Positions 1 to 42,764 of a stretch of DNA of 42,764 nucleotides are shown here, in pieces. Below the pieces are notes generated by a model. That model saw nothing but the letters and a program-made list of their open reading frames with translations, made no database searches and was not told where the DNA came from. Position 1 is the first letter of the stretch. Each line of letters opens with the position of its first letter. Position numbers and translations under genes: made by a program. The DNA is from a virus: IMG/VR virus record IMGVR_UViG_3300045988_053243; one strand, given 5' to 3'.

Positions 1-55
1 TTTTATCTGGTCCGAGTGACAGGATTCGAACCTGCGGCATCCTGCTCCCAAAGCA
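1..55. repeat. att core direct repeat, left copy (truncated by window edge)
   Basis: ttttatctggtccgagtgacaggattcgaacctgcggcatcctgctcccaaagca recurs exactly at 42710-42764. Confidence 0.9.
8..55 (-). pseudogene. Displaced 3' fragment of tRNA-Pro(UGG), the att-site duplicate
   Basis: The reverse complement reads tgc/TTTGGGA/gcagg/atgcc/GCAGG-TTCGAAT-CCTGT/CACTCGG/A/CCA. That gives an anticodon loop with UGG, a 5-nt variable loop, a T arm, the acceptor 3' strand, discriminator A and an encoded CCA. Bases 56-60 (phage side) break the anticodon stem and no 5' half follows. Confidence 0.65.
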
Positions 56-208: not shown

Positions 209-910
209 TCAATGCTTCACGACATATTTGTAATATGCCGCTTCCTTATCCTTTACTGCGTCCTTGTCGTTCAGCCAAAAAGCGCAGGCTGAGTCTGCAT
301 AAAAATCAATGCTGCGCATACCGTGCTTTTCGTTTACGGCGCAACGGTCAGAGTATTCGGCATTCATTGCAACCCAGAATTCAACCGGGTCACAGTCAAG
401 GCCGCGCTGCTGCATTACCTGCTTGCACTGTTCAAAAGTCCAGTGTGGGCCGGTCGTGCCATCAGCATTCTGCATGCTGTGAAGCCATTCCTCCGCCATG
501 CTCTTAGTCATGCGTCCTGCGTTTGCGCTTGCTGCATACCCCATAGAGCGCTCAGAGCCGCGCGTCTTGTCCCCTACGAACGAGGTATCACCCATATAAG
601 CGTCATCATCGCGAAAGCCAATAGGGCGCATCTCATCCTCGTAATCGGGGTACTCGTCATACCTCGGCCATGCGACACTGTTCTTAGGCGCAAAGCGTCC
701 GTCAGAATAGCGGCGGTAACTACGCATTTCCGGTTCGCCGCCGTGAATGCGCTCGTCATAGTAATCATGCGGGTCCATGTTGCCGTAATGATACCGCACG
801 CCGTAATGGTGACGATCTTCGGGATACATCTTGCGGATTCTCCATTCCTCCGGCGAAGCATTCTCTCGGCGGGTGTGCTGCATCAACAGCATTCGGGTTC
901 CTCGTTTCAT
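209..910 (-). CDS. Hypothetical cargo protein (H/Y/D/R-rich N half, globular-looking C half)
   Basis: 233-aa ORF with RBS aaggggg upstream of ATG 910. It is the last gene before the att repeat. No family recognised. Confidence 0.7.
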   Translation of the reverse strand: MKRGTRMLLMQHTRRENASPEEWRIRKMYPEDRHHYGVRYHYGNMDPHDYYDERIHGGEPEMRSYRRYSDGRFAPKNSVAWPRYDEYPDYEDEMRPIGFRDDDAYMGDTSFVGDKTRGSERSMGYAASANAGRMTKSMAEEWLHSMQNADGTTGPHWTFEQCKQVMQQRGLDCDPVEFWVAMNAEYSDRCAVNEKHGMRSIDFYADSACAFWLNDKDAVKDKEAAYYKYVVKH

Positions 911-922
911 GATGATACCCCC

Positions 923-1264
923 TTATGCCGTCGGCGCTGTGCCGTTAATAGACCGCAGCGCGTCAGAATGAGAGCAGCAGGAATTACCGAGCATTCGGAA
1001 ACTGCCGCCGCTGGACGAAGTGACAACGCGACACAGGTATTTGTGACGGGTGTCCAGATTAAACACTGTCGCCTGAGCGCCGTTGCATTTCAGCAGCGGA
1101 TATGTTACCGTTCCGTCGCCAATCGTGATGACCACCGGCGCGCCGATGATCGTCGTACTCGGGATGTTCTGCGCGATGACGATACCGTATACGCAGCCGT
1201 TCTGGTAGTCCCCTGCCGGAATATTTACCGTCAGTACGCCGCTTGCGTAGGTCACGCTCTGTGA
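923..1264 (-). CDS. Body of a beta-rich Cys-containing cargo protein without its own start (fragment; see inversion finding)
   Basis: The frame is protein-like only from 1264 downward (SQSVTYASGVLTVNIPAGDYQNG...CCSHSDALRSINGTAPTA). The upper part of ORF-track frame 923..1639 is antisense of the 1265-1870 frame. No ATG/GTG with an RBS lies near 1264. Confidence 0.55.
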   Translation of the reverse strand, partial: SQSVTYASGVLTVNIPAGDYQNGCVYGIVIAQNIPSTTIIGAPVVITIGDGTVTYPLLKCNGAQATVFNLDTRHKYLCRVVTSSSGGSFRMLGNSCCSHSDALRSINGTAPTA

Positions 1265-1870
1265 GATACGCACAGTGAGTTCAACTTCAACAACCTGTCC
1301 CGTTCCGTTCTCGGCATTCAGGACGGATTGTGCAACGGCTTTTACGCCATGAACAACGGTATGCTTACCGGCTTCAACACGCTCGGCAGCGCAGTTTCTA
1401 ACGGCTTCCACGGCGTAGACAATTCGGTATGCCAGCTCGGCTATCAGAATGCCCAGCTTATCAACGGCGTAAACACCAACATGAACAACGGCTTTAACGG
1501 CGTGACCGCTGGTCTTACGGCACTCGGCACGCAGATGTCCACCTGCTGCTGCGATACGCAGCGCCAGATCGAGCGCGGTTTCTGCGACACCAACTACAAT
1601 GCCGCTACCAACGCACGCGACATTATCCAGACGGCGCACAACGACACCGACCGCATTATTGCACGCCTTGACCAGATGGAGAACACCCGTCAGCAGGAGA
1701 AGATTGCGGCGCTTCAGAACGAGAACCAGACCTTGAAGTTCGCGGCTTCTCAGGAGGCACAGAACAACTATCTGGTTCAGACACTCCGCCCGGCTCCCGT
1801 TCCGGCGTTCCCGGTTCCGGCACCTTACCAGTTTTCCGGCTGCGGCTGCAACACTTGCTGCGGCATGTGA
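1265..1870 (+). CDS. C-terminal about 200 aa of an N/Q/G-rich, Cys-cluster protein, lying inverted relative to its N-terminal piece (fragment)
   Basis: The frame is open from 1265 (stop tga at 1262-1264), yet the first start codon is ttg at 1328 and it has no RBS. The sequence reads DTHSEFNFNNLSRSVLGIQDGLCNGFYAMNNG...TCCCDT...coiled-coil...GCGCNTCCGM. Confidence 0.6.
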   Translation, partial: DTHSEFNFNNLSRSVLGIQDGLCNGFYAMNNGMLTGFNTLGSAVSNGFHGVDNSVCQLGYQNAQLINGVNTNMNNGFNGVTAGLTALGTQMSTCCCDTQRQIERGFCDTNYNAATNARDIIQTAHNDTDRIIARLDQMENTRQQEKIAALQNENQTLKFAASQEAQNNYLVQTLRPAPVPAFPVPAPYQFSGCGCNTCCGM

Positions 1871-1923
1871 GAGATACGTTCAGCCGGGGGACATTCCCCC
1901 GGCTTTGATAGGAGGTTTTGATT

Positions 1924-1965
1924 ATGGCTTGCAAGCCTGTACAGAAACTTTGTCCGAACCTGCGG
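1924..1965 (+). CDS. Orphan RBS + ATG + 14 codons (MACKPVQKLCPNLR), the presumed 5' end of the 923-1264 gene (fragment)
   Basis: aggagg at 1910-1915 lies 8 nt before ATG 1924. After codon 14 the frame runs into the antisense of 1966-2172. It joins in frame to 1264 if 1265-1965 is flipped. Confidence 0.5.
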
Positions 1966-2172
1966 GTCAGAACGAGTTACCGCGCCCTGATAGCCTGCGC
2001 CGTTGCCGCCGTTACCGCCCCAGTTGCCCCAGCCGTTACCGCCGAAGATGAGCGCGATAATCAGAAACGCGAAAATCCACGAGCCGTTACCGCCCCACAT
2101 GCCGTCATTGCCGCCGCCGTTGTTGCTGTCCTGCCCCAGTGCATAGCCCAGAGCCATAGAGTCATCACTCAT
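1966..2172 (-). CDS. N-terminal Gly/Asn-rich single-TM piece of the 1265-1870 protein (fragment; ORF-track frame continues to 1825 as a non-protein-like tail)
   Basis: RBS aaaggag precedes ATG 2172. The sequence is MSDDSMALGYALGQDSNNGGGNDGMWGGNGSWIFAFLIIALIFGGNGWGNWGGNGGNGAGYQGAVTRSD. Confidence 0.6.
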
Positions 2173-2280
2173 TATAAATTCTCCTTTTCAGTTTATTTTG
2201 AACGGAGCCGCGCGAACTCCGAACATGACAAAATCACGTCGGTTTTTCGTCAAGACCCGTCAAAACTGAAAAGAAGTTAT

Positions 2281-2502
2281 TTACTTGATCTTCATGCCGA
2301 ACTGCTGTGCAAACTGATCGAGGTCGATTCCCCGCTCTTTGGCAATGTTCATCGCCATCTGCCGCAGCGCGTCCGGACCTTTGCCCTGCATACTCTGCAT
2401 CAGCTGACCGACCATCGGATTATTGCCTGTCATCTGCTGCAAAAGCGCCGTCGGGTTTCCGCCGTGCTGCATCAGCTGCAAAACCTGCATCATATTCATC
2501 AT
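2281..2502 (-). CDS. Hypothetical M/Q-rich small protein
   Basis: 73-aa ORF whose start overlaps the stop of the upstream gene. Confidence 0.6.
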   Translation of the reverse strand: MMNMMQVLQLMQHGGNPTALLQQMTGNNPMVGQLMQSMQGKGPDALRQMAMNIAKERGIDLDQFAQQFGMKIK

Positions 2503-2858
2503 GCCTCATTGCCTCCCAGCTTGTCGCACAAGGTGTTGAACCGTGCTTTCAGTTCGTCAAACTCGCTTCTCGGAACGAACTTTGACAAATCCGTTTCCGA
2601 GGGTTTATTTGTTTCCTGCATCTGCACCCGGCTGTATGCCGCGAAATCCGCGCAGCCGGTTTGAAGGTTGAGCTGCTTTGTGTAGATATAGCCGTGCGCC
2701 GTGTCCGGCATGATGGTCAAAGCGCCCGAAAAATCGGTCTGAACCGCTCTTGCCTCCTCGACGCTTGCCACCGGACGCACAATATGTTGTGGGTACTGCG
2801 GCATCTGGACATTCTGTTGTGGATACTGCTGTGGATACTGTGGATAACCGTAAGCCAT
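2499..2858 (-). CDS. Hypothetical protein with a Q/P/Y-rich N terminus
   Basis: 119-aa ORF. Its start overlaps the upstream stop in a TAATG arrangement. Confidence 0.65.
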   Translation of the reverse strand: MAYGYPQYPQQYPQQNVQMPQYPQHIVRPVASVEEARAVQTDFSGALTIMPDTAHGYIYTKQLNLQTGCADFAAYSRVQMQETNKPSETDLSKFVPRSEFDELKARFNTLCDKLGGNEA

Positions 2859-3013
2859 TATCCGTGCACCTCCGTTTCGTGAAGGGAGCGCTCCTTGTAG
2901 GCAAGGTACTCGTCGAGATACTTTGTGTTCCCCGCCTCGCGGTAGTCCTCAGCAATGCGCCGCGCACACTGCTTGTCGTAGCCGATACGTTCCAGTCTTT
3001 GTTCGTAGCTCAT
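2858..3013 (-). CDS. Hypothetical small protein (51 aa)
   Basis: Hand-translated as MSYEQRLERIGYDKQCARRIAEDYREAGNTKYLDEYLAYKERSLHETEVHG. It is below the ORF-track size cutoff and its stop overlaps the next start. Confidence 0.5.
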   Translation of the reverse strand: MSYEQRLERIGYDKQCARRIAEDYREAGNTKYLDEYLAYKERSLHETEVHG

Positions 3014-3069
3014 GCTTTATCGCCCCTCTCTATGCGTCTATTATAGCGCATCGGAAGCGCGAAAACCTG

Positions 3070-3270
3070 TCACAAAACTTTCAGTATTTTCCGTTTGATG
3101 TTCCGCAGACGGCGGTAAACCGTTGCCTCGCTCATATGCAGCGTGTCAGCAATCTGAATAACAGAACGCGCCGTAACTCGTAGATCGAATACGGCGCGTT
3201 CCTCGTCTGTAAAATTGCATTCACGCCGGAGGTATTCCACCTCCGGTCTTGTAAACTCCGTTAATTTCAT
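3070..3270 (-). CDS. Small sigma-70 region-4-like HTH regulator
   Basis: 66 aa. The segment SVIQIADTLHMSEATVYRRLRNIKRKI is a region-4/LuxR-type HTH pattern. It is the first gene after the lysis cassette. Confidence 0.6.
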   Translation of the reverse strand: MKLTEFTRPEVEYLRRECNFTDEERAVFDLRVTARSVIQIADTLHMSEATVYRRLRNIKRKILKVL

Positions 3271-3324
3271 GCGGTTATCCCCTTGTTATGGTGTCACCGC
3301 ATATCTTTCCCCTCGTTTTTTCTC

Positions 3325-4056
3325 TTAGCCGTACAGGTGTGCCCTGTCGTTAATCACCAGAATGCGCATCAGGCTTTCGGTCAGTGCAAGGTTGCCGTTC
3401 TCGTCGCCCTGCAAAAAGCCCTTGTTTACGAGCTTCTGCACGGTCTCCTGTGCCCACTGCGGGCACTCCTTCGGCCTGTTGTAAACCTTCTCCGCCGCGC
3501 TCCTGATCTCCTGCTTTGCGATTGCGCGGGTCTGTGCTTCCGTCATATCTTCAACCTCTTTCTCTGTCAGCATGGTTTTGAATTTCTGCCACAGCTGCGG
3601 ATTTCTCACCCACGGTTCCGGGCAATCCTTGTGCGTCACATCGTAGTGACGGCACACGCGCGATACCGGCACATGGTACTTTGCCATCAGCTCACGGGTC
3701 AGCTTTGCGGCGCGCTTCATGGTTTCCTCAGGGATAACGTACACGCCGTTTCGGATAACGCTGCACATCTCAATGCCGATGGAATTAGCGTTCCGGCAGT
3801 CGTTGTAGTAACTGCCGCCGCGTTCCCTGCCGCAATGCCATGCCGTGTCCGTGTCCTTCACACTCTGGTAAATCTCGTTCGGGTCTACAAAGTAGTGTGC
3901 ACTTGCCCGCAGATTTGCGTTGTTCGCGAAGTAATCCGCGTTGTTCTTTGCCGTATCGCCGTTGTTCGAGGTGAAATGCAGAACAATCCAGTGCACGGGA
4001 AACTCTCTGCCCTTGCGGTAGTTACTCGGGTTACAGCCCTTAAAAGTGATTTTCAC
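3325..4056 (-). CDS. Endolysin: N-acetylmuramoyl-L-alanine amidase (Amidase_2/PGRP type) with a C-terminal SLH-like wall-binding motif
   Basis: Catalytic-domain signatures include HWIVLHFTSN, AHYFVD, WHCG and NSIGIEMC. The C-terminal segment is PQWAQETVQKLVNKGFLQGDENGNL. It sits immediately downstream of the holin. Confidence 0.85.
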   Translation of the reverse strand: MKITFKGCNPSNYRKGREFPVHWIVLHFTSNNGDTAKNNADYFANNANLRASAHYFVDPNEIYQSVKDTDTAWHCGRERGGSYYNDCRNANSIGIEMCSVIRNGVYVIPEETMKRAAKLTRELMAKYHVPVSRVCRHYDVTHKDCPEPWVRNPQLWQKFKTMLTEKEVEDMTEAQTRAIAKQEIRSAAEKVYNRPKECPQWAQETVQKLVNKGFLQGDENGNLALTESLMRILVINDRAHLYG

Positions 4057-4514
4057 TGTTCATCATCTCCGATTTTGTCCACCGCGTCCTTTGCGGCGGA
4101 AAGTGCCTTTTGCAGCCACGCCGGAACAGGCGCACCGAGGGAAACCGCGTTCTCCACGATAGAGCCGAGTTCCGTCAGTGTGTACCAGACCACCACCAGA
4201 GGGCACAGCAGAACCGTATATTCGAACGGCAGCGTCACGCCCGGCAGATGGTCACAAACCATGCCAATCAGCAAGTCCGCGCCGCCTGCGACTGCAACCA
4301 CTACGATAGAACCGACTTTGTGAAAAATGCCGTCCCTTGCTGCCTTGCTCGACCACTTGCCTTTCTGCATTGCCGCCGCAGTGCCCGTCAGGTAGTCCGC
4401 CGCCATTGCCACGACAAACAGCACGACAAGCCAGCCAAACCACCCCCACAGGGCGGTAAGAACGGCAATGCAAGCGGTAACAGCCGCCTTAAATTTGTTT
4501 ACATTATCCATCAT
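4053..4514 (-). CDS. Holin
   Basis: 153 aa with several hydrophobic helices and a charged C terminus. Its stop overlaps the endolysin start. Confidence 0.75.
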   Translation of the reverse strand: MMDNVNKFKAAVTACIAVLTALWGWFGWLVVLFVVAMAADYLTGTAAAMQKGKWSSKAARDGIFHKVGSIVVVAVAGGADLLIGMVCDHLPGVTLPFEYTVLLCPLVVVWYTLTELGSIVENAVSLGAPVPAWLQKALSAAKDAVDKIGDDEQ

Positions 4515-4678
4515 CTGTCTCTCTTTCTGTTGTAACGGTATTCCAGATATTGTTCTGTCAGCTCACGTTGACGCATTACCTCGCGCACCTTTGGATTATC
4601 CTCGCGCTGTGGAATACGCTTCGGAAAAACCTCGTCGACGATCATGTTCGGTGCAGCGGTGTTTTCTGCGCCCTTCAT
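4511..4678 (-). CDS. Hypothetical small protein (55 aa)
   Basis: Hand-translated as MKGAENTAAPNMIVDEVFPKRIPQREDNPKVREVMRQRELTEQYLEYRYNRKRDR. RBS ggaggtg precedes it and its stop overlaps the holin start. Confidence 0.5.
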   Translation of the reverse strand: MKGAENTAAPNMIVDEVFPKRIPQREDNPKVREVMRQRELTEQYLEYRYNRKRDR

Positions 4679-4679
4679 G

Positions 4680-4823
4680 TTACACCTCCTGCTTGAGCAT
4701 TTCGGTCAGCGTGTTGTACTCGCTTTCGGTGAGCTTGCCTGCTGCAAAAAAGATGTCGATCTTGTCTGCAAGGCCGTCGGTCTGGTTCTTCTCGATCATG
4801 CGCTTCAAAGTACGAAATAACAT
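4680..4823 (-). CDS. XkdX-like small protein (47 aa)
   Basis: MLFRTLKRMIEKNQTDGLADKIDIFFAAGKLTESEYNTLTEMLKQEV with RBS aaaggag. The position between tail fibre genes and holin is typical of the XkdX family. Confidence 0.55.
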   Translation of the reverse strand: MLFRTLKRMIEKNQTDGLADKIDIFFAAGKLTESEYNTLTEMLKQEV

Positions 4824-4837
4824 TGTGTTTGCTCCTT

Positions 4838-5194
4838 TCATTCGTTGAGACCCAGTTCAAGCAGGGTTAACCTGTATTCGTGGTCTACCATCATAGCGTT
4901 TGTATCGTCCTCTGCGGTTGGCTCAGGTTTAGGCAACGCCGCCTTATCCGCCTCGATTTCCTCGGTAGTGCGCTCTACCACCTTGCCGGCTACCAGTTTG
5001 TAGCGAAGCACTGCGCCGTCGTAGAGCGGGTTATCGAGATAATGACTCTGAGCGAGCGCGTACTTGTCTCCATAGCCTTCATCGATTTTAATCCAACCGG
5101 TGAGATCAGCCGGGAGAGAATACTCTCCCTCAAGCCGCAGCACACGGCTTTCACTGTCCAGAAGGACGTATACACGGGATTTAGGGGTTTGCAT
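4838..5194 (-). CDS. Hypothetical tail-associated protein (XkdW-like position)
   Basis: 118-aa ORF with a strong RBS (aaggaggtg), downstream of the fibre gene. Confidence 0.6.
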   Translation of the reverse strand: MQTPKSRVYVLLDSESRVLRLEGEYSLPADLTGWIKIDEGYGDKYALAQSHYLDNPLYDGAVLRYKLVAGKVVERTTEEIEADKAALPKPEPTAEDDTNAMMVDHEYRLTLLELGLNE

Positions 5195-41415: not shown

Positions 41416-41449
41416 GAGGGTAGTACATTTGAGGAACGTTACTACCCTC
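41416..41449 (+). terminator. Second stem-loop just upstream of int
   Basis: gagggtagta/14-nt loop/tactaccctc followed by ttattat. It could insulate or regulate int. Confidence 0.4.
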
Positions 41450-41482
41450 TTATTATACGACAAAATAGGAGGAAATTCAACA

Positions 41483-42571
41483 ATGAAAAAGAATGCCGAC
41501 GGTTATTACCGTGAGACCTTCACGTTCAAGGGCAGACGGTATGACGTAACCGCCAAGACAGAACGCGAGCTCTGGCGGAAAGTCGACGAGAAAAAGCGCC
41601 GCCTTGAAGAAGGTGTAGACGTGGTGAACGAGAACACGAGCGTCGATAAGTGGTTCGCGGAATACATCGAGACTTACAAAAAGCCGAAAGTGCAGCCGCG
41701 CACCTGTTCTGATCTGCAAGGCTATCTCAAGAACTACATAGCGCCGGAAATCGGCTCTATGCGACTGAAGAATGTTAGAACCGTGCACTTGCAGCGCATC
41801 ATGAACAGCGTTGCAGGCCGTTCCGCGTCCATGGCGTGCAAGCTGCGCGATCTTATCAAAGGCGCGTTCCGGCAGGCGCGTATTGACCGTGTAATCGTTT
41901 ACGACCCCTCAGAGGCACTGGTTATGCCGGAGACCAAAAACGGCACGCACAGGGCGATTACAGCCGACGAGCGCAAGCATATCCTGCACGTTGCCGAGAC
42001 GCATCGCGCCGGGCTCTGGGTGCTGTTCATGCTGTACACCGGTGCACGCCCGGACGAGACCAGGAAAGCGACATGGGACGATGTTCGCAGAAACGAACAA
42101 AAGATCATCCTGCACTCGTCCAAGACGGATTTCGGCGACAGAGCCGTTCCCCTGCATCCGGCGCTTGCTCCTCTGCTGACCGGCGGCAAAGGTTACATCT
42201 TCACACAGCCGACCACCGGCAAGCCGCACACAAAGCATTCCATGCGCCGCATGTGGGAGAGTTTCAAACGCGCCGTAGACATCGACATGGGAGCACACAC
42301 TTTCAAAGGCGGTGTTATCCCGGAGACTTCAAAGGTAGCCGTGGACCTCACGCCCTACTGCTTGCGTCACACCTACGCAACCGACCTGCAAACGGCAGGC
42401 GTTCCGATCAACGTTGCAAAGGACCTGCTGGGGCACAAGGAGATTTCGATGACAGCGCGTGTTTACACCCACCTGTCTGAGGAGGCGTTCGCCGCAGCGG
42501 TAGACAAGGTGGTTGCACTGGACGCCGCGCGTCGGAGCGGCAAACTGGCGGAAATTAAGTCCCACACTTAG
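41483..42571 (+). CDS. int: Tyrosine integrase
   Basis: ATG 41483 follows aggagg. The catalytic-domain motifs are TGARPDE, HSMRRMW, CLRHTYAT and LLGHKEISMTARVYTH. Confidence 0.9.
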   Translation: MKKNADGYYRETFTFKGRRYDVTAKTERELWRKVDEKKRRLEEGVDVVNENTSVDKWFAEYIETYKKPKVQPRTCSDLQGYLKNYIAPEIGSMRLKNVRTVHLQRIMNSVAGRSASMACKLRDLIKGAFRQARIDRVIVYDPSEALVMPETKNGTHRAITADERKHILHVAETHRAGLWVLFMLYTGARPDETRKATWDDVRRNEQKIILHSSKTDFGDRAVPLHPALAPLLTGGKGYIFTQPTTGKPHTKHSMRRMWESFKRAVDIDMGAHTFKGGVIPETSKVAVDLTPYCLRHTYATDLQTAGVPINVAKDLLGHKEISMTARVYTHLSEEAFAAAVDKVVALDAARRSGKLAEIKSHT

Positions 42572-42709: not shown

Positions 42710-42764
42710 TTTTATCTGGTCCGAGTGACAGGATTCGAACCTGCGGCATCCTGCTCCCAAAGCA
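42710..42764. repeat. att core direct repeat, right copy (truncated by window edge)
   Basis: Identical to 1-55. Confidence 0.9.
42717..42764 (-). tRNA. tRNA-Pro(UGG), 3' 48 nt only; the 5' part lies beyond the window
   Basis: The structure elements are the same as in the left copy. The 5' continuation lies on the bacterial side of the junction, so this copy is presumably the intact gene. C1:G72-compatible acceptor and A73 fit tRNA-Pro. Confidence 0.7.

Follow-up and report, generated by a model that had tools for sequence, protein, structure and literature searches.

The viral record IMGVR_UViG_3300045988_053243 from IMG/VR (42,764 nt, analysed at its full length and called the window below) is a complete temperate phage genome in which two neighbouring accessory genes, here called A and B, are split by an inverted segment. 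The accessory region that holds the inversion lies between the lysis genes and the phage attachment site (attP), at the right end of the phage. Its normal operon is co-oriented and consists of a 73-aa gene, A, B and a DUF7841 gene, and the order A, B, DUF7841 on one strand is that found in the relatives. Intact A (protein P0166) is a single-pass membrane protein of 269 aa that belongs to the family phrog_16490, and intact B (P0180) is a protein of 128 aa that was found on 163 contigs. The features of the window at this locus are given below, where the A site and the B site are the two points of the progenitor operon that meet the ends of the inverted segment, RBS stands for ribosome-binding site and ORF for open reading frame.

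207-178: strong terminator after the DUF7841 gene, intact (terminator scan)
209-910, minus strand: DUF7841 gene (Pfam PF25223, E 3.5e-29), intact, last in the operon and now behind the scrambled A and B
923-1272, minus strand: 3' part of B, native from TATCTCACAG (1268) to the stop codon at 925-923 and equal to the B region of the relative L098; positions 1272-1269 are the second, inverted TGCG
1269-1272: left-junction tetranucleotide, CGCA on the plus strand and TGCG in gene orientation, which comes from the B site and replaces the reverse complement of TGTG that a simple inversion would leave
1273-1964: inverted segment of 692 bp, which holds the 3' part of A, the A-B hairpin with the RBS, and the first 41 nt of B
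1273-1870, plus strand: 3' part of A, starting at the last base of codon 72 and ending at the stop codon
1825-2172, minus strand: chimeric ORF of 115 aa (P0121), A residues 1-69 followed by 46 antisense read-through residues
1883-1903: A-B intergenic hairpin gccggggga-cat-tcccccggc, inside the inverted segment; it lies between A and B in collinear relatives
1910-1964, plus strand: RBS aggagg (1910-1915) and 5' part of B, with ATG at 1924 and 13 codons plus 2 nt, ending in ...GAACCTGCG at the right junction; equal to the start of P0180
1961-1964: right-junction tetranucleotide, TGCG on the plus strand and CGCA in gene orientation, the other copy of the B-site core
1965-2172, minus strand: 5' part of A, with RBS aaggag and ATG, codons 1-69 plus 1 nt, ending in ...TCTGACC at the right junction; equal to P0166 residues 1-69

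An earlier annotation of this DNA (the original prediction) had fitted four incomplete reading frames together as the pieces of two co-oriented cargo genes split by an inversion of about 0.7 kb. All four frames are present: the minus-strand frame 2172-1966 with its RBS (aaggag) and ATG, which encodes A residues 1-69; the plus-strand frame 1265-1870, open directly after the TGA at 1262-1264; the plus-strand frame behind aggagg, of which 1924-1965 encode MACKPVQKLCPNLR; and the minus-strand frame 1264-923, which is open and has no start codon. Gene callers reported the 3' part of A as an ORF of 180 aa (P0122) with a TTG start at 1328, which matches positions 108-280 of the 286-position phrog_16490 profile. 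The chimeric P0121 formed a singleton cluster and was found only on contigs identical to the window.

When the window was compared with 13 relatives by blastn, the alignments fell into three blocks, of which 1-1272 and 1965-5000 ran in one orientation and 1273-1964 in the opposite one; the inversion that had been predicted was thereby borne out. The flip was seen against three relatives that were 86-95% identical (L001-L003) and against ten isogenic relatives from other samples (L004, L006, L007, L008, L010, L098, L100, L103, L104 and L105), which matched about 8.8 kb of the window at 99.9-100% identity. In L004, L006, L007, L010, L098, L100 and L103-L105, the 692-bp segment was 100% identical and lay in the opposite orientation. 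The segment of L008, likewise in the opposite orientation, was identical over 1274-1964, and this relative carried a nonsense change of its own at 1273. Further, among 80 IMG/VR loci recruited with B, A lay upstream on the same strand in all 80 and was intact (249-274 aa) in each of the 75 that were not cut by a contig end. Homologues of the two reconstructed proteins are thus contiguous in other genomes. We concluded that the 692-bp inversion is real and that it very probably arose in a single event which split two neighbouring accessory genes, as a mutation rather than a switch. The phage is common in the gut, and the inversion is confined to one of its lineages.

The isogenic progenitors are known, so that the junctions can be read without ambiguity. 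In gene orientation, the progenitor A site reads ...TCTGACC-TGTG-CAGTGAG... and the progenitor B site ...CCGAACC-TGCG-TATCTCA.... We named the successive parts of the progenitor X, c1 (TGTG), S, c2 (TGCG) and Y. The ancestral arrangement X+TGTG+S+TGCG+Y was found verbatim in five isogenic relatives (L098, L100, L103, L104 and L105). The window corresponds exactly to X+CGCA+rc(S)+TGCG+Y, that is, to X·rc(c2)·rc(S)·c2·Y, where rc denotes the reverse complement. The A site has lost its TGTG, and both junctions carry the TGCG of the B site, as an inverted pair; the event was not a conservative one. The A-site break falls in codons 70-72 of its gene (GACC-TGTG-CAG) and the B-site break in codons 13-15 (GAACC-TGCG-TAT).

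The true breakpoints are accordingly 1272/1273 and 1964/1965. The ends that had been proposed, 1265 and 1965, were off by 8 nt and 1 nt, and positions 1265-1272 belong to B. Flipping 1265-1965 does give two in-frame ORFs (270 and 127 aa), as the original prediction held, but they are not the native proteins: A then reads ...TRSD-DTH-SEF... instead of the native ...TRSD-LC-SEF..., and B lacks Ile15. When 1273-1964 was re-flipped, A and B were both frameshifted, and when 1269-1964 was re-flipped, native B was obtained together with an in-frame A in which LC was replaced by PH. Because TGTG was lost and TGCG was doubled, no simple flip gives both native proteins. Between the neighbourhoods of the two junctions, exact inverted matches reached 5 nt at most, a length also reached by 90% of random window pairs, and no inverted-repeat pair with one arm at each junction was present among the 25 longest of the 91 found. 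The observation that long inverted repeats are missing from the junctions was therefore correct. At the joints themselves, inverted microhomology amounted to 2 nt at most.

Judged from the reading frames, the inversion cuts A to a 69-residue membrane stub with 46 nonsense residues, turns what is left of A, together with the RBS and 5' end of B, away from operon transcription, and leaves the body of B without a start codon. Taken together, these changes knock out both genes. The inverted variant was assembled as an excised or circular genome, which suggests indirectly that replication does not depend on A or B. As a structural variant the inversion is ordinary. Its proper annotation is two pseudogene fragments for each gene, not four odd ORFs or an invertible switch.

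Gene A belongs to a large family. It has more than 5,500 homologues; of the 120 listed, nearly all were 250-300 aa long and covered 94-100% of the reconstruction, and the best full-length homologues among those listed were 97% identical to it. The reconstructed protein matched phrog_16490 with an E value of 4.6e-37 in two stretches, the better of which paired residues 133-269 with profile positions 108-280 of 286. The length of A (269-270 aa) fits the 286-position profile, and the family is one without known function; in the window, its member is split and half inverted. A starts with a Gly/Asn-rich stretch that holds its single transmembrane helix; NGF-type repeats, an invariant CCC motif and a long helical region are present as well, and its C terminus is rich in Cys. 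Searches of A against Pfam, NCBIfam, PADLOC and PDB profiles gave nothing significant, and its AlphaFold model had a predicted local distance difference test score (pLDDT) of 48 and was not used. When genome_contigs was searched with A, only distant relatives (32-40% identity) were found, in Bacilli, Erysipelotrichaceae and metagenome-assembled genomes of Oscillospiraceae, and they were uninformative about the inversion. P0036, a protein of 285 aa from a very short ENA contig (1,005 nt), combines A-like sequence with an N terminus that resembles an FAD oxidoreductase; it probably reflects chimeric assembly or a fusion that is unrelated.

Other sister phages have lost A by other changes. Among the isogenic relatives, Trp32 is replaced by a stop codon as TAG (L004 and L010) or as TGA (L007), Trp26 by a stop codon in L006, and Cys72 by a stop codon in L008. 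Among the distant relatives, we found two mapped frameshifts (L003 and L106/L107), a stop codon in place of Gln167 (L108), and a deletion that fuses A to the DUF7841 gene (P0091). P0053 is a frameshifted A product that was read from the protein sequence only and was not mapped. The 180-aa broken product was found on 11 contigs, compared with 24 contigs on which the intact isogenic A was read (its listing covers 50 index blocks). A was broken in none of the 75 IMG/VR relatives. Because of the many other independent knock-outs in sister phages, loss of A appears to be tolerated or favoured, and A looks dispensable; an excess of A knock-outs is plausible, not established. Three short A-like products (P0037, P0061 and P0039) had been considered as further inversions and were rejected, as all were collinear frameshift or nonsense alleles.

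The decay of prophage morons offers a parallel, since there too non-essential genes near attP and downstream of the lysis genes are hit by an assortment of nonsense, frameshift, deletion and rearrangement alleles in near-identical phages. Unlike in moron decay, the carrier here was assembled as a complete circular phage that is not obviously cryptic, and the number of hits per gene is unusually high. Together with the sister-phage alleles, the inversion marks A as a repeatedly lost accessory gene of a large family without known function, and makes A a lead for what such a gene costs or triggers in the host.

The inverted form was found only on three contigs, L005, L009 and L011, all of them 100% identical to the window and all, like the window, reading across attP. 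The names of L005 (BENG15-1_SAMEA2784452) and L009 (ERR636353, PRJEB7369) tie both to the study of Swedish travellers PRJEB7369 (PMC5725903). A single-nucleotide polymorphism at window position 4494 separates the inverted lineage (the window, L005 and L011) from the collinear L004, L006, L007 and L008, while L009 and L010 lack this position; it is a lineage marker in the holin gene region.

Two readings would deny that the locus records a mutation. According to one, the segment is a programmed switch by which a host- or phage-encoded site-specific recombinase turns A and B on or off. A hairpin and an RBS lie within the segment, inverting 1269-1964 gives the in-frame A and native B described above, and the evidence consists of assembled contigs. 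The Hin, Gin and Cin serine invertases, the shufflons and the invertons of Bacteroides and Clostridia likewise flip a short segment within or between genes, and the invertible segments of phages such as Mu and P1 lie near the end of the late region. Unlike those systems, the present locus has no flanking inverted repeats above chance, no invertase and no conservative exchange (4 bp were lost and 4 bp duplicated in inverted form); further, it has one coding orientation, its inverted state yields nothing functional, and the flipped form is known from one lineage only. About 100 related loci that are not identical to the window, including the ten isogenic ones, were all in the standard orientation. 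A Pfam scan of 30 window ORFs returned, as recombinases, only the tyrosine integrase and a weak Rad52-like match, and a tblastn search of the window with Hin gave no invertase (best E 0.32), which still leaves room for a host-encoded enzyme; the prediction that no invertase is encoded nearby agrees with both results. Degenerate patterns of the junctions, in which the wobble positions were left free, had no matches in three large collections (both junctions were searched in viral_contigs and metagenome_contigs, the right junction in genome_contigs), and as a control the right-junction pattern did find the window itself. An exact look-up among 15 billion proteins returned no revertant A (LC to PH), no A of the DTH type, no 127-aa B and no product of the sister molecule discussed below. 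A switch, contradicted on four counts, is barely credible. According to the other reading, the inversion arose during assembly and the molecule does not exist in nature. The window is indeed a metagenome-assembled contig. De Bruijn contigs contain only k-mers present in the reads. The same junctions occur in three further contigs with names of different styles (scaffold_905, k127_27120 and k119_117767), no inverted repeat comes close to the k-mer length and could make the path ambiguous, and a 4-bp substitution at the junction is not expected from a mis-join in the graph. With the junctions shared by three assemblies and no repeat to mislead the assembler, mis-assembly is very unlikely, and we give it hardly any weight. 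Among the three natures that the original prediction had left side by side (a fixed inactivating inversion, a switch and an artefact), the inactivating inversion is the one that stood.

Accepting a real, single inversion, we considered how it may have been made. The geometry of the junctions points, tentatively, to a type II topoisomerase (gyrase or topoisomerase IV). In this scheme, the A site and the B site would both be cut with a 4-bp stagger, and the middle fragment would be turned, its ends exchanged and religated strand by strand, leaving a 4-bp heteroduplex at each junction. The top strand of the product would read X·rc(c2)·rc(S)·c2·Y and the bottom strand X·c1·rc(S)·rc(c1)·Y. One round of replication would then segregate a daughter with the B-site tetranucleotide at both junctions, which is the sequence observed. 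By our own derivation, cuts shifted by 1 nt in either direction no longer reproduce the sequence of the window. A staggered-cut exchange would account for the loss of 4 nt, the gain of 4 nt and the inverted duplication in one step. Cleavage with a 4-bp stagger is typical of type IIA topoisomerases, that of gyrase leaving 4-bp 5' overhangs (PMC6379681). Exchange of subunits or interfaces between two cleavage complexes is a classical model of recombination without homology, and gyrase-mediated illegitimate recombination of this kind has been reviewed (PMC11164529). As in recombination by gyrase, whether by the subunit exchange of Ikeda or by interface swapping (PMC11164529), the joints here are independent of homology; the 4-bp unit swapped at each joint matches the 4-bp 5' stagger, and one strand of the heteroduplex is the sequence observed. 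Unlike the classical cases, in which joints between lambda and plasmids were obtained with extracts and oxolinic acid, this would be an inversion within one molecule that arose naturally in a phage of the gut, and it is known from sequence. With one tetranucleotide at each junction, both from the same parental site, the locus shows cleanly, in nature, what 4-bp staggered breakage and exchange should leave behind.

A one-off inversion by another illegitimate route, either the joining of the ends of two breaks or template switching during replication, is also a possible origin, and we think it about as likely as the topoisomerase scheme, from which it differs in enzymology only. The junctions lack homology, as such a route would allow, the sites are unlike those preferred by gyrase in quinolone-type cleavage, and blunt rejoining can in principle yield the sequence observed. 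End joining would need two coincidences, the loss of exactly 4 nt and the gain of 4 nt that happen to be an inverted copy of the tetranucleotide at the other junction. After template switching, short inverted homologies are usually seen where the switch took place, and those here do not exceed 2 nt. Quite improbable, in our view, is a recombination of two secondary pseudo-att sites by the tyrosine integrase of the phage or by a host Xer-type enzyme. The phage does encode an integrase (41429-42571), and an exact 10-mer, CGAACCTGCG, is common to the B site (in its ancestral form; window 1955-1964) and the tRNA-like region of attP (approximately 27-36, plus strand), a match reached by only 2.3% of random 40-nt windows. 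That value (p of about 0.02 per site) is post hoc and becomes marginal once two sites are counted, and the A site has no similarity to attP above chance. Further, tyrosine integrases use overlaps of 6-8 bp and usually cross over in the T-loop, whereas the apparent stagger here is 4 bp and the breakpoint lies outside the T-loop.

Several points weigh against the account favoured here, a single mutational inversion of topoisomerase origin in a gene that is repeatedly lost. The topoisomerase step rests solely on geometry, the replacement of 4 bp by 4 bp, and the same sequence would result if two double-strand breaks were repaired by end joining after resection of 4 nt at the A site and fill-in of 4 nt at the B site. 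The preference of E. coli gyrase for quinolone-type scission before G is not seen at either site, and the host enzyme may differ. No protein of the sister product that the scheme predicts, X+TGTG+rc(S)+CACA+Y, is present in the collection of 15 billion proteins. The assemblies L005, L009 and L011 may derive from one person, so that the spread and fixation of the inverted form are uncertain, and a minority of the other orientation within the sample is possible, the basis being assemblies. The look-up of knock-outs was partly biased, as a search with the 180-aa product returns broken alleles only. A wider claim, that the inversion is at once an in vivo footprint of a topoisomerase, one among ten or more independent knock-outs of A in a nearly clonal phage of wide distribution, and part of a positively selected loss of this gene, is doubtful as a whole. 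If it were true, A may be costly to the lysogen or sensed by host defence.

The second disrupted gene, B, has 466 homologues; most of the 120 listed were about 128 aa long, and nearly all were full length. The model of B was a small beta-sandwich (pLDDT 75). Compared with PDB folds, it gave no significant match, the best being a phage baseplate or tail-fibre chain with an E value of 0.02. In BFVD, it matched small uncharacterised phage proteins (TM-score 0.89) and, more weakly, distal tail-fibre or receptor-binding domains. A kinship of B with distal tail-fibre or receptor-binding domains is suggestive only. A similar domain is part of one of the BFVD matches, a crAss-like DUF7841 protein; this hints that B and the adjoining DUF7841 gene may be functionally linked.

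The assembly of the window is circular: positions 1-55 and 42710-42764, the first and the last 55 nt, are identical. It represents a siphovirus-type temperate phage of the human gut with a Clostridia host that is Agathobaculum/Butyricicoccus-like. The minus strand carries almost all of the genes, including those for the terminase, an SPP1-type portal, a minor capsid protein, the capsid and the tail region, and a Cro/C1-type repressor and an antirepressor are encoded at the integrase end. The other features named in the text are as follows.

3325-4056: amidase, a lysis gene of the phage
4053-4514: holin, a lysis gene of the phage
41429-42571: tyrosine integrase, adjoining attP

Both ends of the window lie inside a tRNA-3'-like attP segment (…GCAGGTTCGAATCCTGTCACTCGGACCA, minus strand). 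ARAGORN called no tRNA at the window ends or in the integrated junction, since the phage carries a tRNA 3' fragment only. Integrated copies of the phage adjoin the sporulation genes SipL and SpoIVA, and one source assigns a homologue of B to Agathobaculum butyriciproducens/Butyricicoccus.

Two further observations concern the genes around the accessory operon. Between the amidase gene and the operon, at 3070-3270 on the minus strand, the window encodes a 66-aa helix-turn-helix protein of GerE/LuxR type (similar to region 4 of sigma-70), which may regulate the cargo genes. Further, 12 nt of the window (2818-2829) are absent in L007. This in-frame indel falls in the gene at 2499-2858 (minus strand), in a YPQQ-type repeat at the N terminus of a 119-aa protein (phrog_21718), and looks like repeat slippage.

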